From positions 128,876,397 through 128,940,396 of the forward strand of contig CM097887.1 in the NCBI GenBank assembly GCA_044892525.1: a stretch of 64,000 nucleotides of DNA, in the 5' to 3' direction. The position numbers and the translations under genes were made by a program. This document shows, in pieces, positions 1-56,799 of the stretch. The stretch is from Schmidtea polychroa. Taxonomy: Eukaryota. Each line of letters starts with the position of its first letter. Position 1 is the first letter of the stretch. Below the pieces are notes generated by a model. That model searched no databases and was not told the DNA's origin. It worked only from the letters and a program-made list of their open reading frames with translations.

Positions 1-2720
1 AATTATTAACATCTAGGTATGACATTTGTGTTGATTCATCAGCTTCAACATGATGTTTGTTGATAAATGTCATTCCACCACGAATACCAGCTTCAAATAA
101 ACGGTAAAGCTCTGGATCTTGAATAAATTCTACTGGTTCAGGTAACTGTTTAATAGCTGATGCCCAACTTAATCCGGGTATGGAAACAAACGATAGAGCC
201 TCAAGTCCATCTTCGTCAAATGTTTTTTCTCTGAAAGCTTCAAAAACATCGGCCAACAGAAAAACATCCAACTTGAGATATACTAGCATGTAATCTAGCA
301 GTGTCTCACAGTTGTATTGTCGCCAGATTCGATTTGCATGTATATAATCTTCTTGACTAACTCCCTCCCAAATCGGTGGTAATTCTGTTATTGACTGTAA
401 AACATCCATTGATGTAGCCATATCATAAGGAAAAATGGTTTTACAAGTCATCATCTGTGATTCGAAAACATCTGAGGTCAGTGGAAGACGTGGCAAGTTT
501 TTTGATAAATTTGCCAAGCTGCTATTTAAAAATTGTAAAGAATCAATGAATCTAATTCTTCTGCCTTTCGATGTCGCTGTAAGTGTGAGAAACTTTTCTG
601 TTGATTGAGGAATAACAATTAAATTCCAATCTGGGAATTTTCCAATTGCATATTTTAATATATGATGAATGTCATATCCACGAAGATTATGAAATACAAC
701 AGGTAAAGACGGATTGATTCTTCTAGCCAAATTACAATCTTGACACGCTGCTCCGAGATATTGACCAGTAAAATGATCATGATCTCGAACAGGTATATTG
801 ATAATCTTTTTACAAAGGTAGCAATGAGTTTGAGTCGTGAATTCTTCCTGCTGTTCCCAAGAGAGTTCCATCATTTCCTTTGATCCATTAATTTTATACC
901 ACGGATAAACTATGTCTGTAGCTATATCATCCAATGCTTGTATGAACTGAATGATACAGTTTTTCCCAACAAATGTTTCATTTCGAATCGGACAACCTTG
1001 ATGAAGAAGCACAAATTCAGATGCAATCGGCTCATGTTTTTGGAAGTGCTTGTCATCTAGAGGTAATATTGATTCAAAGTCCGCATAGACAACAAACTGC
1101 TGTTTTATAGTTTTACTCCAGTCTTTAAATTCGATATATTTATTCTCTGGCATTGAGTATAGAGTCGTCCGCTCCACATTCTTCCTACAAAGACCTATAT
1201 GTCTTTCAAAAGCAGGACGTTTTTGAAACCCATGAAGACACGTATGACACCAATGTGATTGGATTCTGACTCCTTCTACTCTATCTCTGTAATTGAGCAG
1301 TCGATCGAGATTAGTTACAGCCAAAAAATGATAATTTAATTCTAAAATTTAGTTAATATTTTTAATGATTAAAAGAAATATTACCTTCTTCAATCAATAA
1401 GAGATATATCTGAGATCCCGTCGAAGTACTTCTATATACCAAGTCAACGAACCGATTCTTGAAAATATCATTAGTTTTTTGTTTAATTGGATCTTTATTA
1501 TATTTGAGAACATTGATCGCTAGATTTGGATTCATTGCTTCAAATTGGCAAATGTTAACCAACTTCATCGGAAACCATTCAAATTTCCATTTTAAGTCTT
1601 AAAAACAAAATTCAATGATTTATGACATTTATAAATATATATATTACCACTTAAGTTATATTTTGTTGTTCTTTCTCTATCCCGACGTATGTCATCATAA
1701 CGTAATACGGCCAGTATGCTATATAAAAAGCAGAATTGATCATTATTTTGAACATTAACTAAAGCCTGGCAGTTTTTCAGGTAATTTGGCGTTTTAATGT
1801 AACTTGAACCTAAGTAAATATCTTGATTTATATATATATATAATGTAAATAAACTTACCAGATACATGTATTATGTCTGATAATTTAGTTAAATCATAGT
1901 AACTTCTAGTATTTTATGAATTCTCCACCCACTACTTTGTTGAGTGTATTTCTCCAACTTTTCTTTTAATTTTTCAATTCCATCATTAATAAATGAAGAT
2001 GACATTGTAATTGCTTTATTCGACAAACACCATTTTTTAATTTCACCATCCTCTTTGATAAACTCTGCACAAAGTCCAAATTGGATTTTTACTGTCCCCA
2101 TTCGTTGAATATGATCTTCTATTTCTTTGATGAGACAATCTGGAACAACAATGTCAGGAGAATTAATTGCAGATACATCGCTTATCAATTCAACACGAGA
2201 ACCATTTAAGTCAGACTCCCGACGTGGACACAATTGTATGTTAGAGTCTCCATTTCCGTAAAATATTGACTTTCGTTTTGTGGTGCCAGAGTTTTGTCTA
2301 ACTATATTTATAATTAATATTAAACAACTTAAATAACATAACTTGTAACATATTCTTTAATCTGCTTAGGATCGTATGATGTATTCATTTTCGGTTGTAC
2401 TATAAAAAATTAATAATTGTTAATAGTAGAAAGAGTATTACTTTTAGTGATCATCCTGCTCTTCGTTTCTTCGAATCTTCTAAGATGGTGTCCGTGTTGT
2501 CGTACAAACATTAACCACCTACCTGGTGATATAATGAGACATTCCGGACATATGTAACCCGATAAGGTAGAGTCATTTATCTTGAAATATGATGATGTAA
2601 CTGATTTACAGTTCTCCACATCTTCATGACTTTCGGCAATACAAAATTTATATACACTGCATCCGTTCACTAAAAGAAAATAATCATTAATATTAGATAG
2701 AGAATAAAAAATTATTCACT
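1..2720 (-). CDS. polB: Second pPolB copy (mirror of 6392-9111), running off the left edge of the window
   Basis: Reverse complement of the right-arm gene with the same introns and the same frameshift. One visible non-synonymous difference (2655 vs 6457, V/L). The long exon from 1341 has no stop before the edge, so it is absent from the ORF track. Confidence 0.9.
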
Positions 2721-3456
2721 TATATAAGTTAAATTAAAAGTTTAAATGACAAACATTTGAAAAGTTACTGCTTATATATTACACATGATTAAATTCTGAC
2801 CAATCAAAATCAAGGAAGGGGTAGGAAAAATAAATATATTCTGACCAATCAAAATCAAGGAAGGGGTAGGAAAAATAAATGCATTACGTTACAGTATTTT
2901 AAAAGTTCAATATATTTTAAAACACATTTTGATGCTAAAGTTGACTTATTTAACATTTTCATAATAATTTAATAAAAATAATGTGATGAACCCACAAAGT
3001 AATATCATTTTTCATCAAATTGCAAAACAGTAATAACGTTTTCATAAAATTGTAACAAAATAATAACATATTTCAGATAAATTTTCAACAGTTGTAAAAT
3101 ATTTAAACAAATTGTAACAAGATTAGAAAATATTACAACAAAGTAGTAACATATTTCAGAAAATTTCAACAAAGTTGTAAAATATTTATCAAATTGTAAC
3201 TAAAATAATAAAAATATTGCAACAAAGTAATAAAATAATGATGTTAATTGGGACAAATCAATACATTATTTCGAAGACGGACAACAAATTAAAAAGAATA
3301 TTGTAATAAATTGTGAAGTCTTTCAGTAAATTACAACAAAGTAATAACATATTTCGGAAATATTTCACCAGATGTAAAATATTTAAGCAAAATGTTATAA
3401 GATTATAAAAATATTGCAACAAAGTAATAAAATAATACAACATTTTAAACTCTAGA

Positions 3457-4045
3457 TCAATCCATTTTATAGAAAATTAAATTTTATCTCTATAATATAT
3501 GAATAAATATACAAGGAAATTACGTTAACTGTATGAAAAATACAAATTTATCGTAAAAAACATGTGTGTATTACACACAACATACAAGACATAATTTTTA
3601 ATCAAGCTATTTTATAGAAAATTAAATTTTATCTATATAATATATGAATAAATATTCAAGGAAATTACGTTAACGTATAATAAATACAAATTTATCATAA
3701 AAACATGTGTGTATTACACAAAAAACAAGATACATAATTTCTAATCAATCCATTTTATAGAAAATTAAATTTTATCTATATATTATATGAATAAAATCCT
3801 AAGAAAATTACGTTAACTATATGAAAAATACAAATTTATCTTAAAAACATGTGTGTATTACACACAGAACAAGATACATAATTTCTAATCAATCCATTTT
3901 ATAGAAAATTAAATTTTATCTATATAATATATGAATAAAAATCCAAGAAAATTACGTTAACCGCGCGAAAAATACAAATTTATCGTAAAAACATGTGTGT
4001 ATTACACACAAAGCGACAAACTAAAATTGTAATTGAGCCATTTTG
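3457..4045. repeat. Tandem array of four ~144-bp units (left arm)
   Basis: Reverse complement of right-arm units 1, 5, 6 and 7. Confidence 0.93.
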
Positions 4046-4225
4046 TAGAGAATTAAATTCTGCCTATACATGGTTACACTTAAATCCCAATCGAACAAAG
4101 AGAAAAGAGAGAAAAAGAGAGAAAAAAAAACAGTAGAGTAGGGTATTGTGTGGACCCGGGTGAAACCTTTGCATAGATCTCTTCAAGACCTTACGAATGA
4201 TGTGAATAAAATATAATTAAATTTT

Positions 4226-4418
4226 AAAATACCGCAACGTAATATATTTAATAATTAAAATTTCAAAATACCGCAACGTAATATATTTTTAAAATACCGC
4301 AACGTAATATAAATTTTAAAATACCGCAACGTAATATAAATTTTAAAATACCGCAACGTAATATATTTTTAAAATACCGCAACGTAATATAAATTTAAAA
4401 ATACCGCAACGTAATATA
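4226..4418 (+). repeat. Seven copies of an invariant 21-mer AAAATACCGCAACGTAATATA (iteron-like)
   Basis: Core TACCGC starts at 4230, 4269, 4295, 4322, 4349, 4375 and 4402 (spacing 39, 26, 27, 27, 26, 27). Confidence 0.95.
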
Positions 4419-4449
4419 AATTTAAAAAAAAATTTAAAAAAAAAAAAAA

Positions 4450-4520
4450 TACCCCCCTCCCCCGGGGGTATGACGTCATATGTCTTTGTGACGTCATCGA
4501 TGACGTCATATGTCTTTGTT
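4450..4520. promoter_or_regulatory. GC hairpin plus three CRE/ATF sites (TGACGTCA), including a perfect 20-bp palindrome
   Basis: TACCCCC-N7-GGGGGTA at 4450-4470. TGACGTCA at 4471, 4489 and 4501. TGACGTCATCGATGACGTCA (4489-4508) is self-complementary. Direct repeat TGACGTCATATGTCTTTGT occurs twice. Confidence 0.75.
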
Positions 4521-4635
4521 CCCGGGTCCACGCAATACCCTACTCTACTGTTTTTTCTCTCTCTTTTTCTCTCTTTTCTCTTTGTTCGATTGGGATTTAA
4601 GTGTAACCATGTATAGGCAGAATTTAATTCTCTAC

Positions 4636-5655
4636 AAAATGGCTCAATTACAATTTTAGTTTGTCGCTTTGTGTGTAATACACACATGTTTTTACGATAA
4701 ATTTGTATTTTTCGCGCGGTTAACGTAATTTTCTTGGATTTTTATTCATATATTATATAGATAAAATTTAATTTTCTATAAAATGGCTCAATTACAATTT
4801 TAGTTTGTCGCTTTGTGTGTAATACACACATGTTTTTACGATAAATTTGTATTTTTCATACAGTTAACGTAATTTTCTTAGGATTTTATTCATATAATAT
4901 ATAGATAAAATTTAATTTTCTATAAAATGGATTGATTAGAAATTATGTATCTTGTTCTGTGTGTAATACACACATGTTTTTAAGATAAATTTGTATTTTT
5001 CATATAGTTAACGTAATTTTCTTAGGATTTTATTCATATAATATATAGATAAAATTTAATTTTCTATAAAATGGCTCAATTACAATTTTAGTTTGTCGCT
5101 TTGTGTGTAATACACACATGTTTTTACGATAAATTTGTATTTTTCATACAGTTAACGTAATTTTCTTAGGATTTTATTCATATAATATATAGATAAAATT
5201 TAATTTTCTATAAAATGGATTGATTAGAAATTATGTATCTTGTTCTGTGTGTAATACACACATGTTTTTAAGATAAATTTGTATTTTTCATATAGTTAAC
5301 GTAATTTTCTTAGGATTTTATTCATATAATATATAGATAAAATTTAATTTTCTATAAAATGGATTGATTAGAAATTATGTATCTTGTTTTTTGTGTAATA
5401 CACACATGTTTTTATGATAAATTTGTATTTATTATACGTTAACGTAATTTCCTTGAATATTTATTCATATATTATATAGATAAAATTTAATTTTCTATAA
5501 AATAGCTTGATTAAAAATTATGTCTTGTATGTTGTGTGTAATACACACATGTTTTTTACGATAAATTTGTATTTTTCATACAGTTAACGTAATTTCCTTG
5601 TATATTTATTCATATATTATAGAGATAAAATTTAATTTTCTATAAAATGGATTGA
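4636..5655. repeat. Tandem array of seven ~144-bp units (right arm)
   Basis: Unit starts (AAAATGG/AAAATAG) at 4636, 4780, 4924, 5068, 5212, 5356 and 5499. Units carry a TGTGT(GT)AATACACACA hairpin and a TAACGTAATT motif. Confidence 0.95.
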
Positions 5656-5681
5656 TCTAGAGTTTAAAATGTTGTATTATT

Positions 5682-6075
5682 TTATTACTTTGTTGCAATA
5701 TTTTTATAATCTTATAACATTTTGCTTAAATATTTTACATCTGGTGAAATATTTCCGAAATATGTTATTACTTTGTTGTAATTTACTGAAAGACTTCACA
5801 ATTTATTACAATATTCTTTTTAATTTGTTGTCCGTCTTCGAAATAATGTATTGATTTGTCCCAATTAACATCATTATTTTATTACTTTGTTGCAATATTT
5901 TTATTATTTTAGTTACAATTTGATAAATATTTTACAACTTTGTTGAAATTTTCTGAAATATGTTACTACTTTGTTGTAATATTTTCTAATCTTGTTACAA
6001 TTTGTTTAAATATTTTACAACTGTTGAAAATTTATCTGAAATATGTTATTATTTTGTTACAATTTTATGAAAACG
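5682..6075. repeat. Degenerate 83-84-bp tandem repeat (TTATTACTTTGTTGCAATATTTTT...), mirrored at ~3037-3430
   Basis: Unit starts at 5682, 5765, 5879, 5963 and 6046. Confidence 0.85.
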
Positions 6076-6231
6076 TTATAACTGTTTTGCAATTTGATGA
6101 AAAATGATATTACTTTGTGGGTTCATCACATTATTTTTATTAAATTATTATGAAAATGTTAAATAAGTCAACTTTAGCATCAAAATGTGTTTTAAAATAT
6201 ATTGAACTTTTAAAATACTGTAACGTAATGC

Positions 6232-6340
6232 ATTTATTTTTCCTACCCCTTCCTTGATTTTGATTGGTCAGAATATATTTATTTTTCCTACCCCTTCCTT
6301 GATTTTGATTGGTCAGAATTTAATCATGTGTAATATATAA
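6232..6340 (+). promoter_or_regulatory. Pol II-type promoter of pPolB: two copies of a 43-bp block with a reversed CCAAT box, then a TATA box (mirror copy at ~2772-2880, minus strand)
   Basis: ATTTATTTTTCCTACCCCTTCCTTGATTTTGATTGGTCAGAAT at 6232-6274 and 6277-6319 (ATTGG at 6263 and 6308). TATATAA at 6334-6340, about 50 nt upstream of the predicted split start codon. Confidence 0.6.
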
Positions 6341-6391
6341 GCAGTAACTTTTCAAATGTTTGTCATTTAAACTTTTAATTTAACTTATATA

Positions 6392-9300
6392 AGTGAATAA
6401 TTTTTTATTCTCTATCTAATATTAATGATTATTTTCTTTTAGTGAACGGATGCAGTTTATATAAATTTTGTATTGCCGAAAGTCATGAAGATGTGGAGAA
6501 CTGTAAATCAGTTACATCATCATATTTCAAGATAAATGACTCTACCTTATCGGGTTACATATGTCCGGAATGTCTCATTATATCACCAGGTAGGTGGTTA
6601 ATGTTTGTACGACAACACGGACACCATCTTAGAAGATTCGAAGAAACGAAGAGCAGGATGATCACTAAAAGTAATACTCTTTCTACTATTAACAATTATT
6701 AATTTTTTATAGTACAACCGAAAATGAATACATCATACGATCCTAAGCAGATTAAAGAATATGTTACAAGTTATGTTATTTAAGTTGTTTAATATTAATT
6801 ATAAATATAGTTAGACAAAACTCTGGCACCACAAAACGAAAGTCAATATTTTACGGAAATGGAGACTCTAACATACAATTGTGTCCACGTCGGGAGTCTG
6901 ACTTAAATGGTTCTCGTGTTGAATTGATAAGCGATGTATCTGCAATTAATTCTCCTGACATTGTTGTTCCAGATTGTCTCATCAAAGAAATAGAAGATCA
7001 TATTCAACGAATGGGGACAGTAAAAATCCAATTTGGACTTTGTGCAGAGTTTATCAAAGAGGATGGTGAAATTAAAAAATGGTGTTTGTCGAATAAAGCA
7101 ATTACAATGTCATCTTCATTTATTAATGATGGAATTGAAAAATTAAAAGAAAAGTTGGAGAAATACACTCAACAAAGTAGTGGGTGGAGAATTCATAAAA
7201 TACTAGAAGTTACTATGATTTAACTAAATTATCAGACATAATACATGTATCTGGTAAGTTTATTTACATTATATATATATATAAATCAAGATATTTACTT
7301 AGGTTCAAGTTACATTAAAACGCCAAATTACCTGAAAAACTGCCAGGCTTTAGTTAATGTTCAAAATAATGATCAATTCTGCTTTTTATATAGCATACTG
7401 GCCGTATTACGTTATGATGACATACGTCGGGATAGAGAAAGAACAACAAAATATAACTTAAGTGGTAATATATATATTTATAAATGTCATAAATCATTGA
7501 ATTTTGTTTTTAAGACTTAAAATGGAAATTTGAATGGTTTCCGATGAAGTTGGTTAACATTTGCCAATTTGAAGCAATGAATCCAAATCTAGCGATCAAT
7601 GTTCTCAAATATAATAAAGATCCAATTAAACAAAAAACTAATGATATTTTCAAGAATCGGTTCGTTGACTTGGTATATAGAAGTACTTCGACGGGATCTC
7701 AGATATATCTCTTATTGATTGAAGAAGGTAATATTTCTTTTAATCATTAAAAATATTAACTAAATTTTAGAATTAAATTATCATTTTTTGGCTGTAACTA
7801 ATCTCGATCGACTGCTCAATTACAGAGATAGAGTAGAAGGAGTCAGAATCCAATCACATTGGTGTCATACGTGTCTTCATGGGTTTCAAAAACGTCCTGC
7901 TTTTGAAAGACATATAGGTCTTTGTAGGAAGAATGTGGAGCGGACGACTCTATACTCAATGCCAGAGAATAAATATATCGAATTTAAAGACTGGAGTAAA
8001 ACTATAAAACAGCAGTTTGTTGTCTATGCGGACTTTGAATCAATATTACCTCTAGATGACAAGCACTTCCAAAAACATGAGCCGATTGCATCTGAATTTG
8101 TGCTTCTTCATCAAGGTTGTCCGATTCGAAATGAAACATTTGTTGGGAAAAACTGTATCATTCAGTTCATACAAGCATTGGATGATATAGCTACAGACAT
8201 AGTTTATCCGTGGTATAAAATTAATGGATCAAAGGAAATGATGGAACTCTCTTGGGAACAGCAGGAAGAATTCACGACTCAAACTCATTGCTACCTTTGT
8301 AAAAAGATTATCAATATACCTGTTCGAGATCATGATCATTTTACTGGTCAATATCTCGGAGCAGCGTGTCAAGATTGTAATTTGGCTAGAAGAATCAATC
8401 CGTCTTTACCTGTTGTATTTCATAATCTTCGTGGATATGACATTCATCATATATTAAAATATGCAATTGGAAAATTCCCAGATTGGAATTTAATTGTTAT
8501 TCCTCAATCAACAGAAAAGTTTCTCACACTTACAGCGACATCGAAAGGCAGAAGAATTAGATTCATTGATTCTTTACAATTTTTAAATAGCAGCTTGGCA
8601 AATTTATCAAAAAACTTGCCACGTCTTCCACTGACCTCAGATGTTTTCGAATCACAGATGATGACTTGTAAAACCATTTTTCCTTATGATATGGCTACAT
8701 CAATGGATGTTTTACAGTCAATAACAGAATTACCACCGATTTGGGAGGGAGTTAGTCAAGAAGATTATATACATGCAAATCGAATCTGGCGACAATACAA
8801 CTGTGAGACACTGCTAGATTACATGCTAGTATATCTCAAGTTGGATGTTTTTCTGTTGGCCGATGTTTTTGAAGCTTTCAGAGAAAAAACATTTGACGAA
8901 GATGGACTTGAGGCTCTATCGTTTGTTTCCATACCCGGATTAAGTTGGGCATCAGCTATTAAACAGTTACCTGAACCAGTAGAATTTATTCAAGATCCAG
9001 AGCTTTACCGTTTATTTGAAGCTGGTATTCGTGGTGGAATGACATTTATCAACAAACATCATGTTGAAGCTGATGAATCAACACAAATGTCATACCTAGA
9101 TGTTAATAATTTATATGGATGGGCGCTGTCGCAAAAACTTCCTGTTGGTGAATTTAGATGGCTAAATGATCAGACTGAAATGAATGGTATTGTTGAAAGA
9201 TGTGCAAATGGGGATGAGTTTGATGGAGATCGTGGATATGTTCTAGAGGTTGACATCGTCATTCCTGATAGTATACAAGATAAACTAGATGATTTACCTA

Positions 9301-10382
9301 TAGCTCCTGAGCTTTGTTATCCGCCTGGTAGTAAAGTTGAAAAGCTGTTGTTAACTCATGAGCCTAAGAAAAACTATGTAGTTAATGGTAGAGTTTTGAC
9401 AGAGTGGTTGAGTTACGGCGCAAAAGTCACAAAAGTTAATCGTGCTGTAGAATTCAAGCAAGTGGCTATTTTCAAAGGCTATATTGATTACAATACCAAA
9501 ATGAGAGCAGCTAGTACAGATTCGTTTCAGCGAGATTATTATAAGTTAAAGAACAACAGTTTATACGGTAAAACTGTGGAAAACTTGAAGAAACGTATAA
9601 ATTTGAGATTATGCAGCAAAAACAAAAGATTGATAACTTATTGTAGTAATCCTATGTTTCGTCGTAGCATCAAGATTGCGGATGATCTCATTGCTGTTAT
9701 ACTCAATAAGGAAATTGTGTGTTTAGATAGACCAATGTATATTGGACAAACCGTACTTGATTTATCCAAACTTCGCATGTACCAGTTTCAATATAAAGAA
9801 CTACAGAGTTATAGAGAAGAATTCAATTGTCAAATTAATATCGTAGCCGGTGACACAGATTCCTTCTTTTTAGAGTGTAAAAATGTAGATTTACGCTTAC
9901 AACTATATCCAAAAATGATTGCCGATGGGCTCCTAGATACTTCAAATTATCCAGTGACTGATCCATTGTTCTCAGATAAAATTTGTTCGGTAATCGGGAA
10001 ATTCAAGGATGAGAATAAAGGAAATCAATATAAAGAATGGGTGTTTCTTCGACCCAAGTGCTACTCACTCCAAGGCGATAAAAACACTCTAAAAGCCAAA
10101 GGAATAAGACTTACAAACTCTAATCTTACACATGAAGCCTATAAAAAAGTGTATACTGATGGTGGAACAGTGAGCATCCCACAAAAAAGAATAGGAAGTG
10201 TCAATCATCAGTTGTATACTTTCATGACAGAAAAACGAGCTCTCCAATGTTTGGACGATAAAAGGTATTGGTACAATTGTAATGAAAGCTATGCCTACGG
10301 TCACTATAAGATTCGTCAAATGCATATCGCAACTGCTCCGTCTACAAATGAATGCAATCGAAACAAGCACTTTAACAATTAA
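6392..10382 (+). CDS. polB: Protein-primed family B DNA polymerase (Polinton/Maverick-type pPolB), spliced gene of ~1,240 codons with one frameshift; last exon 7771-10382 intact
   Basis: 864-aa ORF motifs: Exo I VYADFES, HNLRGYD, FIDSLQFL, Exo III YLKLDVFLLADVFE, GIRGG, Pol A YLDVNNLYG, Pol B KLKNNSLYGK, Pol C GDTDS, FLRPKCY, KAKG. It also has an endonuclease VII-like insert (CYLC..VRDHDHFTGQYLGAACQDCN). Upstream ORF pieces carry N-terminal motifs typical of this family (SGW..IL, GSSYIKTP..NVQNNDQFCF, FP....QFE..NP..INV, YHFLAVTNLDRL) and join in frame via GT-AG introns 6393-6442, 6671-6712, 6770-6810, 7254-7302, 7465-7514 and 7728-7770. Confidence 0.9.
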
Positions 10383-11049
10383 ATTTATGTGAATAATAAA
10401 ATATATATTGTGAATTATTTGACTTAGTTAATTAAAATGTGTTTTATCATTTAATTATTTATTTGTCCAATTAATTTAGATAATTAGTTTAAGTAAGAAT
10501 TATTATTTATCATGAAAAACTTTGCTTTGTTTTGAAAAATTAATGCCCATTTTATTTTAAATTAACACAGCTTTACTTTATGATTATTACTAATTAAAAT
10601 TTTATTCAAATTGAAATATTATTGTTATAATTTACCTCTTGTTAGAATATAATGTAAATGTAAAATTAAAAAAAAAAAAATAATAATAATAATAATAATA
10701 AATAAATAAATAAAATAATACTAAAATAAAAACATAATAAAATAATNNNNNNNNNNNNNNNNNNNNNNNNNNNNNNNNNNNNNNNNNNNNNNNNNNNNNN
10801 NNNNNNNNNNNNNNNNNNNNNNNNNNNNNNNNNNNNNNNNNNNNNNNNNNNNNNNNNNNNNNNNNNNNNNNNNNNNNNNNNNNNNNNNNNNNNNNNNNNN
10901 NTTAAAATAAAATATTAATAAATTAATAAATTAATTAAATGTAATAAATTAAAATAAAACATAATAAAATAATTAATTAATAAAAAAAAAAAAAAAAATT
11001 AAAAAGAAGTAATTAAATAAAATGTTACTTTAAAAAATAAATGATTCAA

Positions 11050-11430
11050 TTGGTCTATATTCGATCTTGATATTCCATGACCTTGAAAGTGCGCTGGAGT
11101 CCTTACTATTCACTACTAATATTACACTTGTAAATGTTCTCCTACTAGGTATTAAAAATCTGGATTTAATTTTTCAATAAAAATTTTAAAATTAGCTGAA
11201 TCCATAAACGATAACGGAAGTCCATCTTATAAAATCTGACTATTTAATAGAAATTCAGCAGAAAAATTAATGTCAGCACTTTTGTTCATATCTTCACCAT
11301 GCTCATTTGCCATATGGTAAAGCATACCATTTGTTTGACCATTCATGGAAATAGTATGTTCGCAAAGCTTGCATTTGGTCATATTATTACCAATTTCATC
11401 AAAAAAAAACCCACACTAAACTTCTTTTTT
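11050..11430 (-). pseudogene. hAT transposase N-terminal remnant with BED zinc finger
   Basis: Manual translation: VW.FFDEIGNNMTKCKLCEHTISMNGQTNGMLYHMANEH (W, Cx2C, Hx4H), followed by DGLPLSF; interrupted by stops. Confidence 0.65.
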
Positions 11431-13819
11431 TTCTCTTTTTAGACCCAACTAAAATTTGAAATGAATCTTGCATAGAAACTGGTATATGAGTTATTGATGA
11501 ATCTAAAATAATATCTGTAGTGGTATTTTGAGGTAACAACTAGGAATTATTAGGAAAAAATGCGGTTTTTTCGGGTTGATTTATTGATGTGTCTTTCAAG
11601 AGTCAACACACATCGAGTCAAACACATTGCGAGGTGAATACGGCGTTGATGATGTAGGTATTGTAAACGGTAGTGGTTCTTTGTTAATACCATTTGTAAC
11701 TTTTTACGCGGTTTATCTTTAATTGTAAGGGAATAAATATTTTATTATTAATAAGAAATTATTAATAAAAAATTATTAAATAAATTATTAAATCCCTAGT
11801 TTTTATATTATTATTATTATTTATTTATTGATACTTAACTCTTTCGTGGTTTTTGCTAAAAATTTAAATTTAATTTAAAATAAAATTTATTTGTTTTAAA
11901 ATCAAAAATAATTTTCAAAATATGGGGGCTAAATATTAAAATTAATTTTAATATAATAATTATAAATTAAATTTTTTTAAAATATCCGAATAATATTGTT
12001 AAATAAATTGCTAATTTTAAAACTTTTAATTATTTTCCCCCCAAATTTGTGTATTTTTTAAAATATTTTTCTAATTTTTCCTCCAAATTTGTGTGTAAAC
12101 CCATTTTTAAAATTGAAATAAATATTAATAACTAATAGATAATAATTATTATACTTATAGAATGTTATTCATATAAACTCGTATTATGAGTAATATTTTA
12201 TCATCGAAATTATTATTTTTATTAATANNNNNNNNNNNNNNNNNNNNNNNNNNNNNNNNNNNNNNNNNNNNNNNNNNNNNNNNNNNNNNNNNNNNNNNNN
12301 NNNNNNNNNNNNNNNNNNNNNNNNNNNNNNNNNNNNNNNNNNNNNNNNNNNNNNNNNNNNNNNNNNNNNNNNNNNNNNNNNNNNNNNNNNNNNNNNNNNN
12401 NNNNNNNNNNNNNNNNNNNNNNNNNNNNNNNNNNNNNTATTATTAATATTTAAAATTTCCTACGAACCAATTTAGGAGAAATTTGAGTTGAATGGCAGGA
12501 AGTTTCTAATTTCCGTCTAGAGACTAATTGGAACAAAATTATCTAACGTCTCTAAATGATATAAGTTTAACTATACTGACATAAACTCCTATTTAACTTC
12601 AACAAATAATGATCAAATAAACAAAATAAATATTCATATAAATCCCTTGGTGTTAATATTAAAAAGTTCATTTCATTTTCNNNNNNNNNNNNNNNNNNNN
12701 NNNNNNNNNNNNNNNNNNNNNNNNNNNNNNNNNNNNNNNNNNNNNNNNNNNNNNNNNNNNNNNNNNNNNNNNNNNNNNNNNNNNNNNNNNNNNNNNNNNN
12801 NNNNNNNNNNNNNNNNNNNNNTGAACTTTATAATGACTTTATAAATATTGAAATTTTATTTTAGTTTTCAAACGTTTTCCCTAAGAAATATAATGATGAA
12901 CAAATAATTTGTCATGACTTTTGAATAAGATGTTTTATTTACTTTATAATTCGCAATATTTATTTTTCTGTGTATACGATGAAAAATATATTTGAAAAAT
13001 ATTATTTATTTTTAAATAATAATAATTAAATATTACTAAAATTTTAATAAATGAAAAAATGAAAAAAAAATATAAATAAAGTTTTTATCACATAATAGTT
13101 TTGAAATATTACATATTCTTTACCAATTTACTTTAGAAAAATAGTTGGAATAATTCACAGTTACCTCTGTTCCTTTTTATTATATTAGCTGCCTTTTGAA
13201 AAGATCGGTTCAAATTTCTATTCGTCTGAAATAAATTTACATATTTTCAAAATGAAAAATGCTGGAATTAAATAATTGCCGATTTAATAATAATATTTTA
13301 TTATCACTTTATAGCTGACTCCGTGTATTCAAAACTATTCGTACGAAGACTGTATATAATATACTAATTTATTATTGATATCACAATTTTACAAGATCTG
13401 ATTTTATTAAATTGATAGACCACAAATAGGGCCTATAAGAGCCACATTGAGACCCATTTCAGGTAATATATGTGGCCCCCTATATAGTAATATGAGTTTT
13501 AGAAATTTTAAGTTTTTGTTGATCAATAATTCATTAATACAAAATAAAAAAAAATCCGATTCAAAATATCAAAAAACAAAAACTAAATGTAATAAATAAA
13601 AATGAAAAAAGCCTTTTAGAGTCCTTAGAGGTTTAACTTAAACGAACTTATTTATTCAGAATAATCGAAATCGAAATCAAGTCGAAAGTAAAAATACCCC
13701 AAAGATAGGTGACTCTCAAAGTTGTATTCGATTTTATTATAGGAAATATTTTTTTTGCCCTACATAAAAGTGTAAAATAATATTTTAATCGCTTTGTATA
13801 GTTCTGATCTTATTACTAG

Positions 13820-27551: not shown

Positions 27552-30238
27552 CAGGGTTGCCAGATTTTGAAAACATCATGTCGGGAGTAACGAAAAAAAA
27601 TATTTCGACTGGTCTTTTTTTAGTTTATTTTTTTATACAGAAATTAAAAAGATACATAATTCAAATGCTGTTGAACAAAAAAAATTAAATCAATAAAATA
27701 AAACAAACAAATAAAAAATAAAAAAATTAACAAAAAAAAAACAAAAATAACAAAAATAAATAAAAAAATAAAATAAAATAACAAACATAAAAATAAAACT
27801 AAAAATAAATAAATTAGTGATAATACCAAAATATTTTATAATATTTTTCAGATCTGGCAGCGTTTTTTATAATTAGTTGAGCATTTTCTGTTTGGAGAAA
27901 TTCAATAAATTCTTTACAGGACATTTTAAAATTTTCTTTTACCATTAATTCTGCTTCAAGGTTTTGCAACAACAATTTATTTCGTTCCTTGCGCCAAGCG
28001 GTTGTCATCAAGCTGAATATCCTTTCGGAAGTTGCATTGGTATGAGGAATAGAAAAAATTATGCATACTATTTTATATAAATTTGCTGAGTTTTCATGAA
28101 CTTTAAAGAATTTTACTCATTTTTCATCAGGTAATAATGTGTTCAGTTTTTCTCTTTCTGTATTTATAAAATAATTTAATTTATGAATTTCTTCGAATAA
28201 AATATCTTTATCAATATTGCAAATATTAAATTTTTCAATGATTGCTACTATTTTATTATATTGAATTGATTCTTTTAAACTTAGTGGTTTTAAGATTTCG
28301 AATTTATTATTTTCGAAATTAAACCATTTTTGCAAATAAGTTATTGCCACATTAAAAAATGAATTTGCTTCTATTTCAAATCTTTTTATGGCAGAATCAT
28401 TATCACATTTTTGTAATATTGTTCTTGCGATTGAGCCGTAAAATTGTTGCTCTTTTCTGTTGATTAACGATTGTCTGACTTCATCCATTATATCATATAT
28501 ATCTATTATAAGAACGTTGTTGGTTTGTAACTTTTTTAAAGCGGGCTGAAATATTGAAAATGTGTTCATAATAAATCCTAGATAAGCTATAGAAAGCTCA
28601 TCTTCAAAAAATAATCGTATTCCAACAGATATTGAATTTTGAAACAAAAAATATGATTTAATTGGTTCAAAATCTTTCAATAACCTTTCACCAGCAGGTA
28701 AAAGGCTTAGCCATCGACTTGGAACGTGGCGTAAGATTTCCGACCATTCTACTTCGGCCCATTCAAAAAAATCTTTTAATGTAGGGGTTTTTTTGTTGAC
28801 GAGCTAAACTCGTTATAAATTTTTATGACTATTGAATCAATATCAATTTTCAGTTAGGTTGTGGCTTTTTTCGCAGTGTTGTGCAGAATATGACTATTAC
28901 ATCCAATCGGAATAATTTTAGAATTAGCTTTTTTAAATTCCGTAAAAACACTCTGGTTCTTCCGAAATTCACAGCTGCATTATCCGCACAAAGAGATGAT
29001 AAATTTTAAATATTTAAACTTTTGCATTCCAATTTATTCTTTATATAATCTGCTGTCAACTGAACGTTCACTATCTAGTGAATAAAAAGACAGCAGAACA
29101 TTTTGTATACCTTTTTCTTTGGTAAAATATCGCAAGACTATAGGAAATGTTTTAACATTTCCTTTATTCGAAGCATCGGTACTCACAGAAAATGGAATAT
29201 CACCTTTCAACTGTTCTAAAATTCTTCTTTTCGATTCCGGGGTCAAAACATTACAAACAATTTTGGATATTTTGGTTCTTCCACAGCTGTACTTTCTTGC
29301 TATATTTGAATCAGAAAGCAAACCTGAAAATATTGAACCAGCACAATCACTAGATAAAAAGCTGTGTGAATGCATGATGGTATGATAGCAAAAAGCCACT
29401 TCTGCTGATGTACCAAGTCCTTCGTCTTTGCTGCTTTTTTTACAAAATAACGTAGTCAATTTTTTTGAATTTGCTGATGCAGCTATCTTGGATCGATGAC
29501 CAACCGTTTTAAAGTGTCTTTTAATATCATTTCCACCACCATGTGATATAGAAATTTTAAAATTATTACACACTGTACAAGTAATGTGATGATCACCACA
29601 TTGTCGAATCCAGTCATATGACTTCGTCCATTTCGGATTAAATTTTACTGTATACTTCACTTTTTTTTATATATCCTCTGTTTTCGTCAGAATCAATGCA
29701 TTCCAAATTCGAATCAGACATTTTTAGGCTATAATTAGTACGTCTTATTAAAAAACGAAAACCATTACAAATTTCAATATTAATATATTGAGTTTTTATA
29801 GCTTATACTTACTTTATTCTTTATATATTATATTTATATGTGTTAAATATTACGTAGACGCACCGAGATTTATTTTAATTTTATTCAATATAAATTATAT
29901 TTAGCTTCCTATCCTAATTGTATGATTGTATCACTTAATTTATTTAATATTTTGTTCCAAACGACCATTTTAATTAATTGAGATTCTTAGAATACACAAA
30001 TAAACAATAAGTAAATTTAGACATCAGAACAATACTTATAGGCAAAACACAATGCGCAAAATGTCAAAAAAATTCACTATTTTCACCCAATTGGCATTAC
30101 TTCAAAATGTTAAGTGATGACAACTGCTGAAAAAACTTAATTTACAAATCGGGAGTTTTTGGCATGTATATCGGCAGTCGGGAAATATACTTTCATAACG
30201 GGAGACTCCCGACGAAATCGGGAGGTCTGGCAACCCTG
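27552..30238 (-). mobile_element. hAT DNA transposon, 2,687 bp, with TIRs and 8-bp TSD
   Basis: TIRs CAGGGTTGCCAGA (27552-27564) and TCTGGCAACCCTG (30226-30238). TSD ATTCCAAT at 27544-27551 and 30239-30246. Confidence 0.95.
27814..29660 (-). pseudogene. Disrupted hAT transposase
   Basis: Zn finger (CTVC..SHGG..DIKRH..T.GH), first catalytic Asp in FSVSTDASNKG, RWLSLLP motif just before 28680, and SIPHTNATSERIFS near 28040. Split into ORFs 29034..29660, 28117..28680 and 27814..28011. Confidence 0.9.
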
Positions 30239-45754: not shown

Positions 45755-47577
45755 CCTTTAACCGGAGAGAAGAGTCTTTTGGACTCTTTCTTTTAACCAT
45801 ACGTAAACCAAAATTAAAATACTAATTCAAATTTAAATTTTTTGCACATTTTTTTAACGAATCATGAATTTTCAACAATATTCGAATTTTTTCAAAGTTT
45901 CTAAAATAACGTATTTTCAAAAAATAAAAAAATATACCAAAACAGACAGATGCTTAAATTTCACAAGAAAAATTTAAAAATTTAAAAAGGGGATTTAATT
46001 TTAAATTTAATTATGAAGATTTTTGGGATTCTCTTTTTGGAAGCCCTATATTTCGCGCTACTATGGGTATAAGGCGTTTCTAGTCAATTTTAAGATTTTA
46101 CCGATTTGATGACAAGGAGAATCGGTCAGTGCGCAGATCCAATGATAAATTGGCTCCAATTGGGGATGTTTGGGAAATCATAAATAAAAATTTCTCAAAA
46201 CATTATATTCCAGGCCAAACTTAACCATTGATGAGCAGTTGGTTCCTTTTCGTGGACGAATAAGTTTCAAGCAATACATACCCAGTAAACCAGATAAATA
46301 TGGAATAAAAATTTGGTGGATTGTTGAAAATGAAACGGCTTATACTTCGAAAGGAATTCCATATTTGGGCAAAGAGGGTAACACGAGAGCATTAAATTTA
46401 GCCCAAAATGTTGTTGAAGAACTATGCATACCGTTTCATCGTTCAAATCAAAACATAACATTCGATAACTATTTCACAAACTATGAACTAGACAACTCTT
46501 TGTTGTCTAAACGCTTAACTACTGTTAGAACACTTCGCAAAAATAAGACATTTATACCTCAATCATTTTTGCCACATCCATCTAGAGAAGTTAAAAGCAC
46601 AAGTTTCGGATTTAGTAACACAATGCCAATAATTTCGTACGTACAACAAAAAATCAGGTACTTCTTATTGTTATCTACGAAACATCACACAATGAATGTT
46701 GATACTGAAAATAAAAGAAAGCCTGATCAAATTTTGTTTTATAACGCTACAAAAGGAGGAGTAGATACAATGGACAAACTATGTAATGCTTTTACTGTCA
46801 GACGAAAAACTAATGGGTGGCCTTCTGAATTTTTTCAGAATTTAATTGATGTTAGCGGCGTAGCTGCGCTTGTAATTTGAAGAAATTTTTACAATGAGAA
46901 AATATGTGATTCTCAAAGAAAAGCGTTTATTAGGGAAATCACATACGATTTAGTAAGGACTCAGATCCTGAAAAAGGTATTAGTGCTGCTCATTTGTCAG
47001 TTATAAATGAAGAATTACAAAACACTAACGAAGAAAACTACGGAGAAACGACGTCGACTTTGGAAGATCAACGAAAGAAGAAACGTTATTACATATGACC
47101 TAATGCAATTGACAATGGGAATCATTTGACTAATTATCCTCCTAACGTTAAAAACAAATATCGACGATGAAATAATTATTTTTCTCTTAATTGTTTCTAA
47201 TTAAACTGATCCAAGCAGTATTGCGTCACTTGTAACAGGAATGTATGCAATGAACATTCACAAAATACAGTTCTTTGCCAAAATTGCTTAAAAAAATAAT
47301 AATTTGTGTTGTATGTATTGTTTGTATTTGATAAGTTCATGTTCTTGTTTTTTATGAATTAATGTTTGGTTTTGTTTCATATGTTTTATTTTTTTTTATT
47401 TCCATGAAATATGTATGGCTTGAATTATTTTTGTTTAAAAAAAAAGATTTGGACAATAAATAATTTTATAATTATAATTTTAAGGGATTTCTTATGTATT
47501 CATTAAATATTTAGCTTAAGAGTCCTTCGGATTCTTCTATCCGTTTATGTTACAAAAACATTATGTCCAGTTAAAGG
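45755..47577 (+). mobile_element. piggyBac transposon with TTAA TSD
   Basis: TTAA (45751-45754)|CCTTTAAC ... GTTAAAGG|TTAA (47578-47581). Subterminal inverted GAAGAGTC..GGACTC / GAGTCC..ATTCTTC. Confidence 0.9.
46020..47290 (+). pseudogene. piggyBac transposase (PGBD4-like), disrupted
   Basis: TIDEQLVPFRGR, PSKPDKYGIK, ITFDNYFT, YNATKGGVDTMD, and a C-terminal Cys-rich YCVTCNRNVCNEH..CQNC; stops flank ORF 46239..46880. Confidence 0.92.
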
Positions 47578-55644: not shown

Positions 55645-55902
55645 TTAAATCTAACACGTTATTTCCAAAAATATATTTAATATAAAATCCGAATATCTAA
55701 ACAAAATAACAGTCTAAATATCGTCACTATTTCAATTAATTAAAGATTGGTTTAAGAGGTACTTGAGTGAATGGAATTTATTATTATTTTTAAAAATCTC
55801 AATACAGCCATCTCATATCGGTTACTACATAGTAAATGATCATTCTAGACGTATAAAGTATATATATATATATATATTTCTAGGTAAACTATTTGGAACG
55901 AA

Positions 55903-56799
55903 ATGAAAATATTCAACACCTCAACTTCAAAGCAGTACGAAAGGAAATATGTTTTCAATTCTTACGACACAATTCATTCAAAATTAAACCCAGATCAGTA
56001 TCGAAATCATTTGGATACCAATTATGTCCTTGGCCGTCCTTTAATTGGGATCATCATTTTAGCTTCTCTTTTTTTGTGTACTCTTATTGGAGCTTTATTG
56101 GTGATTTTGATTTTTTGTAAAAAGAAAAACACAGTTTTTGTACTTCCAAAATCCAGTTTATCTGAAGCCTGGAGGTCAAGTATCGAAATGAACAGCCTTC
56201 ATTCTGGATCGGTTGCAGACCTGAACGGATATGGAGATTGGTTAATGCTATATAATGGTAAAATTCAATCCGTTCCCTCGTGCCATCAGATTAACAATTT
56301 TTCAACTAATAGAAATAAAAATAACAATCAAATGTCTGTCGAATCAGCTTTTTTACTCCATATATTTGGATCTAAACAAAGTTTATCTAACAGCACAAGA
56401 TTTCAAGAATCATCGATGAAATCGAACATTTCCCGAAGTCAAAGTTGTCAGAGTAGCATGTCATTTAAGTTCCCCTCATTCGACGTTCTTAAAAGAGCAG
56501 TTTCTAAAAGAGGTGTAAAACTTTCATCTTCAAAGACCTATGAAAGGCTGAGTGATCCTGAAGATAATGAGTCGATTAGTCGTAATCAAAGCACATCGAC
56601 TGCTCACGTGTCAATTATTTGTAATCAAAGAGCAATTGAAGAGGCTAAAGATGTTTACGGCTGTGCCGTGTCCAGTAGACCATGGTTGAAAGATAATTCG
56701 AGTAAACTTTCCCAAATTCCAACAGACTTTACTAAAGTCAAAGTCAACATAAACAGAAAGGTTTATGGCATCAGAAATGTATACATTACAGACGATTAG
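55903..56799 (+). CDS. Unknown single-pass membrane protein (or its last exon), 298 aa, with Ser-rich cytoplasmic tail
   Basis: Long open frame in very AT-rich DNA. Hydrophobic stretch LIGIIILASLFLCTLIGALLVILIF followed by CKKK (positive-inside). No family recognised. Confidence 0.6.
   Translation: MKIFNTSTSKQYERKYVFNSYDTIHSKLNPDQYRNHLDTNYVLGRPLIGIIILASLFLCTLIGALLVILIFCKKKNTVFVLPKSSLSEAWRSSIEMNSLHSGSVADLNGYGDWLMLYNGKIQSVPSCHQINNFSTNRNKNNNQMSVESAFLLHIFGSKQSLSNSTRFQESSMKSNISRSQSCQSSMSFKFPSFDVLKRAVSKRGVKLSSSKTYERLSDPEDNESISRNQSTSTAHVSIICNQRAIEEAKDVYGCAVSSRPWLKDNSSKLSQIPTDFTKVKVNINRKVYGIRNVYITDD

Follow-up and report, generated by a model that had tools for sequence, protein, structure and literature searches.

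An intron-split polymerase gene in a palindromic Polinton derivative of Schmidtea polychroa

The polymerase gene and its predicted product

The stretch of DNA that was analysed, referred to below as the window, comprises 64,000 nt of Schmidtea polychroa (GCA_044892525.1, CM097887.1, positions 128,876,397-128,940,396, forward strand). It carries a gene for a Polinton-type protein-primed DNA polymerase (pPolB; family B, PF03175), the features of which are collected in Table 1. The gene is interrupted by six GT-AG segments with an A+T content of 83-88%, flanked by exons with 30-37% G+C, and all six are located within the N-terminal 30% of the gene. Location, length and AT-rich composition of these segments (50, 42, 41, 49, 50 and 43 nt) were confirmed as given in a first-pass annotation of this DNA, as were their restriction to the N-terminal third and the absence of introns from the catalytic exon 7, which is one open frame. 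The same applies to exons 2, 3, 5 and 6 (228, 57, 162 and 213 nt), described there as multiples of 3; these are open solely via the phase-1 entry frame. Exon 7 matched PF03175 (E = 9e-30) and PF02945 (E = 3e-4) in Pfam.

Table 1. Features of the polymerase gene and of the surrounding element, in window positions
Feature	Position	Strand	Remarks
Two 45-nt direct repeats, each with inverted CCAAT box	6227..6316	+	Likely upstream promoter
TATATAA box and TCATTT initiator-like motif	6334..6368	+	About 30 nt apart; read from the sequence
Exon 1 (predicted)	6365..6392	+	Short 5' UTR and A of the putative split ATG; placed from the promoter layout
Intron 1	6393..6442	+	50 nt, phase 1; would split A/TG; alternative donor 6330
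Exon 2	6443..6670	+	228 nt; Cys/His-rich N-terminal module
Intron 2	6671..6712	+	42 nt, phase 1
Exon 3	6713..6769	+	57 nt; variable linker; open in phase-1 frame only
Intron 3	6770..6810	+	41 nt, phase 1
Exon 4	6811..7253	+	443 nt here; basic linker and predicted terminal-protein domain
Intron 4	7254..7302	+	49 nt, phase 1; in predicted TP-vOTU linker
Exon 5	7303..7464	+	162 nt; first part of predicted vOTU domain, with Cys motif
Intron 5	7465..7514	+	50 nt, phase 1; seen in this family only
Exon 6	7515..7727	+	213 nt; remainder of predicted vOTU core
Intron 6	7728..7770	+	43 nt, phase 1; directly 5' of vOTU His motif
Exon 7	7771..10382	+	Single open frame, no intron; vOTU His strand, exonuclease, endonuclease-VII-like insert, pPolB catalytic domains
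Second gene copy, inverted	1..2772	-	Exon-4 frameshift likewise; extends left of the window
Introns of second copy	2670-2719, 2400-2441, 2302-2342, 1810-1858, 1598-1647, 1342-1384	-	
Palindrome centre	4132..4549	.	418-nt spacer with inward-facing, AGTAG-starting inverted ends
144-nt tandem repeats	4590..5656	.	In the arm, between centre and promoter
Right terminus and target duplication	10902..11123	.	Ends ACTACT at 11117; 6-bp duplication 11118-11123

Exon 4 had been left out of the first-pass annotation. Its length in the window copy is not a multiple of 3, one base being missing near 7219 relative to the other arms. Among the 20 best genomic matches, the exon measures 444 nt in 18 of the 18 arms that lie outside the window's element, and 50 of 51 further copies covering the frameshift site differ there from the window copy. 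The entry frame of exon 4 consequently meets stops at 7221 and 7239. Since both arms of the window's element carry the same frameshift, the window copy cannot make the full-length enzyme. The claim that removal of the introns joins the fragments in frame is therefore valid for the family and fails for this copy. In addition, exon 7 differs from most copies by a 1-nt indel near 10356, which alters the final residues.

In unbroken copies, the product would count approximately 1,240 residues, consisting of a Cys/His module, a linker, a terminal protein (TP), a vOTU domain, an exonuclease and the polymerase. No Pfam match was obtained for the TP and vOTU regions; the domain order was read from predicted secondary structure and motifs, and the domain names follow the available text of 10.1101/2024.03.18.585575. 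For the intronless homologue P0001, the AlphaFold model (mean pLDDT 81) has phi29 polymerase as its best match (E = 5e-18) and contains a TP-like four-strand/two-helix region with a Ser before its last strand, followed by Cys and His motifs. In the window gene, the Ser, Cys and His motifs are found in exons 4, 5 and 7. Mapped onto this model, intron 4 falls in a low-confidence linker after the TP-like domain, intron 5 in a loop of the vOTU-like domain and intron 6 in a turn before the His strand. Judged by the model, exon 4 would be a clean module, and exons 5 and 6 would not.

The palindromic element and its sister families

The gene forms one of the two arms of a 13,124-bp palindrome, of which the second gene copy lies in the same window; both had been missed in the first-pass annotation. 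The palindrome starts 2 kb left of the window, ends at 11117 and carries two outward-facing polymerase genes and no other gene. Its terminal inverted repeats start with AGTAGT, and the 6-bp target duplication at the right end, within the 5-8 bp range of Polintons, has its counterpart at the left end, 2 kb outside the window. Duplications of 6 bp were found in all six copies of this family (family A) of which both ends were inspected, and in two more. An assembly artefact was rejected as the origin of the palindrome on the basis of distinct flanks, target duplications, the asymmetric centre and 0-44 differences between arms.

Hundreds of arms are dispersed in the genome as near-identical copies. 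Of the first 100 arms listed, 56 form divergent pairs within 8 kb, and the intron-6 strings were identical in 27 of 28 such pairs. The arms of the window's element show one difference in approximately 4 kb. In six of eight elements each arm is closest to its own partner, which is compatible with one arm having been copied from its partner, or with conversion between the two. The centre contains 26-27-nt repeats and TGACGTCA motifs, and could be the site of the strand switching that made the palindrome. Its organization is like that of a miniature Polinton of another family, and it was present in 7 of the 11 family-A loci checked.

ORFs for integrase, ATPase, protease or capsid were found neither in the window's element nor in the family-A copies for which ORFs were listed. 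The element is a Polinton derivative and not a complete Polinton, and among the copies whose surroundings were read there was no complete Polinton with a family-A polymerase. Sister families are 53-55% identical, and some of them are complete Polintons: families B and C carry ATPase, rve (integrase) and adenain genes according to Pfam, together with capsid-sized ORFs that have no Pfam match. Such sister Polintons could supply integrase in trans. Genome-wide, PF03175 yielded 8,819 first-look candidates; the genome is very rich in pPolB elements, which belong to at least five families.

Several family-C polymerase elements (L074-L079) are likewise palindromic, with a length of 12.6-16 kb. In one of these, centre and promoter region are 85-90% identical to those of family A, which suggests exchange between the two families. 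Two inverted duplicate pairs were also observed among host MCM genes (L290/L291 and L294/L295).

Evidence for splicing

Five lines of evidence speak for spliceosomal introns in a Polinton-type pPolB gene, all in phase 1 and confined to its N-terminal 30%; introns 2-6 are very probably genuine. A gene finder run without a phase prior recovered introns 2-6 exactly, as well as the acceptor of intron 1 (6442); it also makes false calls, such as a spurious 56-nt intron across the window's frameshift. As its loose calls proved to be noise, only strict calls, defined as 65 nt or less with 80% A+T or more, were counted.

The spliced translation was compared with homologues, as had been proposed in the first-pass annotation. 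Metagenomic relatives encode proteins of 1,100-1,300 residues, 50-62% identical to exon 7, and the intronless ones align to exons 2 and 4-7 in changing frames. Exon 2 gave tblastn matches from residue 1-5 of P0002, P0011, P0015 and P0020. Calculated from exon lengths, 22 residues separate the SGW motif from the Gly at intron 4, and 97 residues separate the Cys motif from the His motif; both spacings equal those in the nearest intronless relatives (22 and 97). Against a profile of 32 relatives, the junctions of introns 2, 3, 5 and 6 scored highest among two to three frame-compatible GT-AG pairs each, with small HMM margins for introns 2 and 3 (2-2.5 bits); for intron 4, no candidate passed with the frame anchor used. 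Intron removal thus restores homology in unbroken copies, the window's exon-4 frameshift being excluded from this statement. Introns 1 and 3 had been singled out as the least secure. This caution was justified for intron 1, of which the donor is ambiguous, and was misplaced for intron 3, which is the best of three frame-compatible pairs and measures 41 nt in 48 of 49 copies.

Selection was assessed in 60 copies, 90-98% identical and chosen by position (one arm for each element, all from chromosome C1 and from among the first 100 places listed). Among variants shared by at least three copies, 39 were at 208 intron-interior sites and 52 at 1,103 sites in exons 2-6, and the 24 GT/AG sites had none. 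For shared variants, pN/pS was 0.16 in exons 2-6 (0.12 in exon 2, on few sites) and 0.13 in exon 7, and for singletons it was 0.71-0.73. The introns contained 17 shared indels, exon 4 had two and the terminal part of exon 7 another two, exons 2, 3, 5 and 6 being devoid of them; exon 3 was free of indels in the copies covering it. Intron lengths among copies fell into every class modulo 3, ranging from 47 to 53 nt for intron 1 (48 copies) and from 19 to 126 nt for intron 5. The GT-AG ends are fixed, the interior drifts and the length changes freely, as in U2-type introns. The shared and singleton variants, together with the indels, indicate that the spliced frame of the exons was in use during the spread of the family, each copy decaying after insertion.

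A search with an exact pattern spanning the intron-6 flanks detected 717 intron-bearing places in the genome, and the corresponding intronless pattern, for which a positive control was run, had 0 genomic matches. Intronless patterns for introns 4 and 1, searched without a positive control, also had 0 genomic matches.

RNA junctions had been named in the first-pass annotation as a further check. Contigs were available from runs X1, X2, X3 and X7 (4 of 17 listed), none of which is on record as RNA. One contig from X1, a run guessed to be RNA, starts at 7769 with 13 letters equal to the end of exon 6. It represents the spliced intron-6 junction and is thin direct support for one intron. Other contigs listed from X1, X2 and X3 run through introns 1-3 without splicing and may derive from DNA or unspliced RNA, and the entries listed in the joint contig table include no intron. 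As contigs cannot show level, strand or absence, missing junctions of introns 1-5 were counted neither way.

Intron positions were compared with those in homologous elements, again following the first-pass annotation. The relatives L115 and L125 have GT-AG introns of 43-48 nt whose codon positions coincide with those of introns 4 and 6 and whose sequences are unrelated to those of the window family, and are intronless at position 5; most relatives lack introns 4-6. In no tree did family A, L115 and L125, which carry introns 4 and 6, come out as a single clade, so repeated losses or parallel gains are needed. Module swapping via introns of the same phase was considered as a cause of this patchy distribution and found unsupported: the three carriers remained ungrouped in TP, vOTU and catalytic trees (three changes each, FastTree only). 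One to four short phase-1 introns were also seen in the N-terminal region of the metagenomic relatives L118, L119, L133, L136, L123, L115 and L125, and in L119 mini-exons occur in tandem repeat.

Start codon, uniform phase and known systems

Removal of intron 1 was claimed in the first-pass annotation to create the ATG (A/TG). The promoter layout makes this likely, and the presence of a stronger donor at 6330 unsettles it. From the TATA box at 6334, a transcription start around 6365 is predicted, by which the ATG at 6326 would be excluded; each base of the TATATAA/TCATTT region is kept in 46-47 of 47 copies. The split ATG, with donor 6393, is thus probably the actual start. Relatives L112, L123/P0028, P0011 and P0015 begin with M-x-x-C, in line with this reading. 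As an intron-like stretch in L123 ends a few bases before its ATG-x-x-Cys start, the sequences suggest that the split ATG arose from a 5'-UTR intron. Introns splitting start codons are known and relatively rare, according to the available text of PMC1626468.

It is possible, though doubtful, that the ATG is unsplit, the donor of intron 1 lying at 6330 behind the ATG at 6326 (113 nt, phase 1) or the intron remaining unspliced. The donor at 6330 was picked by the gene finder in both copies tested and, like the ATG at 6326, is kept in 46-47 of 47 copies; a second TATATAA is present at 6386, and an X1 contig runs across intron 1 unspliced. However, the TATA box and the initiator-like motif would then fall inside a 113-nt intron, whereas the upstream region of L115 has a similar doubled CCAAT followed by a TATA and an ATG downstream of the latter, and the stretch in L123 points the same way. 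Without splicing of intron 1, the first ATGs are out of frame. Conservation cannot tell the two donors apart, both being kept and both giving phase 1.

Phase was tabulated for introns of relatives and host. Strict calls in close relatives of the same pPolB clade were in phase 1 in 31 of 31 cases, a count that includes duplicate copies and shared positions, and in three of six cases in distant relatives. The loose calls in distant relatives were distributed over phases 0/1/2 as 54/82/75 (82 of 211 in phase 1), which indicates that the gene finder is not biased towards phase 1. Host kinesin and MCM loci, called likewise for the comparison with host genes proposed in the first-pass annotation, contained 20 short introns (41-59 nt), 10 in phase 0, three in phase 1 and seven in phase 2. 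Under the host phases (3 of 20, a small sample), six of six in phase 1 would have a probability of about 1e-5 if independent; under a preference for G before the donor in the coding sequence of this gene (46-49% phase 1), this becomes about 0.01. The bias that had been called unlikely by chance is accordingly real, the intron events themselves being non-independent. In the polymerase gene, G falls on codon position 1 in 46% of cases, which favours phase 1 for introns 4-6; these are preceded by G, and introns 1-3 by A. Near-identical 1-1 exons are repeated in L119, and duplication accounts for the linker introns only. Inheritance, exon duplication and codon bias are probably the causes of the uniform phase, and the common phase 1 most likely reflects inheritance of the layout, not a switch.

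The preferred reading, an intron-split polymerase with an inherited phase-1 layout in a palindromic Polinton, is given a probability of roughly 0.78 as a whole. According to this reading, the host spliceosome would very likely excise the six short, host-sized GT-AG introns from each functional transcript, and removal of intron 1 would likely create the start codon. Within the variable N-terminal linker, phase 1 would have spread as symmetric 1-1 exons were duplicated, and introns 4-6 would have been inserted after a G at codon position 1. The element would be copied by its own polymerase, with integrase provided in trans by complete sister Polintons.

A wider reading, which we consider improbable, joins the all-phase-1 layout as a working device to a polymerase-only palindrome that copies itself by fold-back and borrows its integrase. 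If true, splicing would make the start codon and could drop TP or protease exons in frame, so that one gene would yield several replication proteins, a step toward the adenovirus arrangement, and the palindromic offshoot would represent a class of self-replicating but non-self-integrating elements. That selection maintains the uniform phase, alternative splicing giving several in-frame products such as a polymerase without TP (exon 4 skipped) or without protease (exon 5 or 6 skipped), is unlikely in its own right. The 31 phase-1 calls in close relatives, set against the distant strict calls, the loose calls and the host introns, favour it, although they include duplicates. So do the coincidence of exon 4 with the entire predicted TP domain, bounded by intron 4 in the TP-vOTU linker, and the separate TP gene reported for some polintons in the available text of 10.1101/2024.03.18.585575. 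However, introns 4-6 are dispensable, because most relatives lack them; introns 5 and 6 interrupt the vOTU fold; exon 1 joined to any exon except 2 gives no ATG; and retention of intron 4, of which the length is free modulo 3, has no fixed outcome. On the latter ground, retention of intron 4 was rejected as a fixed route to free terminal protein. That every internal exon can be skipped in frame, as claimed earlier, is formally correct for unbroken copies. No skipped form was seen in the contigs, which cannot show absence, and introns 5 and 6 cut the predicted vOTU domain.

Nor is phase 1 a rule for these elements. The putative leader of family B has a possible phase-0 intron, its link to the polymerase being uncertain, and in a complete family-C Polinton (L087, around 3871-3910) the adenain-type protease gene has an apparent short intron right after its start, in phase 2 or phase 0 and thus not in phase 1. 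The leaders of families C and D are in phase 1 by eye. The whole-element intron scan found one of six known introns, so that counts in other Polinton genes are lower bounds. The uniformity of phase is real and probably historical, regulated skipping being a minority reading.

That the segments are young introner-type insertions or the result of decay in a dead element, instead of inherited introns, is very improbable: introners do colonise maverick-polinton-like elements of dinoflagellates (10.1101/2025.03.18.643946, available text) and the window copy itself is broken, but an introner origin was rejected on the pairwise similarity among the six introns, which is at shuffle level (mean score 12.1 versus 11.8, sd 0.6), clear flanking duplications are lacking, intron positions are common to divergent relatives, exons are under purifying selection across the introns, and intronless copies of introns 1, 4 and 6 were not found (positive control for intron 6 only).

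The inherited, intron-split polymerase in a palindromic Polinton derivative is real, and several of its traits are those of Polintons/Mavericks. Shared traits are PF03175, the phi29-like fold and the TP-like region with subsequent Cys and His motifs in the model of homologue P0001 (compared with the TP-vOTU-exonuclease-palm order of Polinton pPolB in 10.1101/2024.03.18.585575, available text), as well as inverted ends starting with AGT and a 6-bp duplication. In contrast, the available texts of PMC8097293 and 10.1101/2022.07.12.499685 describe intact Mavericks of vertebrates and nematode Maverick core genes as lacking introns, whereas six spliceosomal introns are found here. Terminal inverted repeats of Polintons measure 100-1500 bp (10.1101/2023.08.22.554363, available text), against inverted repeats of approximately 6 kb that contain the polymerase. 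Polintons own integrase, ATPase, protease and capsid genes, all four of which are missing from the window's element. The dinoflagellate elements likewise have spliceosomal introns inside an integrated element; as far as the available text of 10.1101/2025.03.18.643946 goes, most of these arose as secondary insertions belonging to repeated introner families. The introns described here, in contrast, are not related to one another in sequence, are fixed within the family, occupy positions also found in distant relatives and have one phase.

In the adenovirus E2B unit, pTP and polymerase are produced from spliced mRNAs with a small start-bearing exon. The related polymerase and the dependence of the start on splicing of a small upstream exon are common to both systems; here, however, TP and polymerase form one frame, and introns of 41-50 nt lie inside the coding region. 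Defective snap-back AAV genomes (10.1101/2020.10.20.346957, available text) resemble the element in the mirror duplication of a genome end and the lack of other genes. Unlike these, the element is dsDNA of 13 kb, integrated at hundreds of places with target duplications, and its retained gene is under purifying selection. A spliced pPolB was not encountered in the available texts of 10.1101/2023.08.22.554363, PMC6431247, PMC12220804 and 10.64898/2026.10.13.758929, and a search by title, with partial coverage, found no literature dealing with pPolB genes that have inherited spliceosomal introns, or with palindromic forms of Polintons.

As intact Polinton elements are defined by intronless ORFs, ORF-based surveys would score spliced ones as decayed, and would also miss the TP and vOTU domains of spliced polymerases. 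A spliced polymerase ties the replication of the element to the host spliceosome. The clade, in which individual intron positions are occupied in some relatives and empty in others and the phase bias is strong, offers a compact test bed for the gain and loss of introns, and palindromic arms that are more alike within than between insertions bear on how Polintons copy themselves.

Rfam gave no match in window positions 1-12000. Elsewhere in the window, ORFs of 210-303 codons at 28117-28803 (-), 29034-29666 (-) and 55888-56799 (+) had no convincing Pfam match, and an ORF at 46188-46880 (+) matched PF13843 (piggyBac-like DDE transposase; E = 4e-39).
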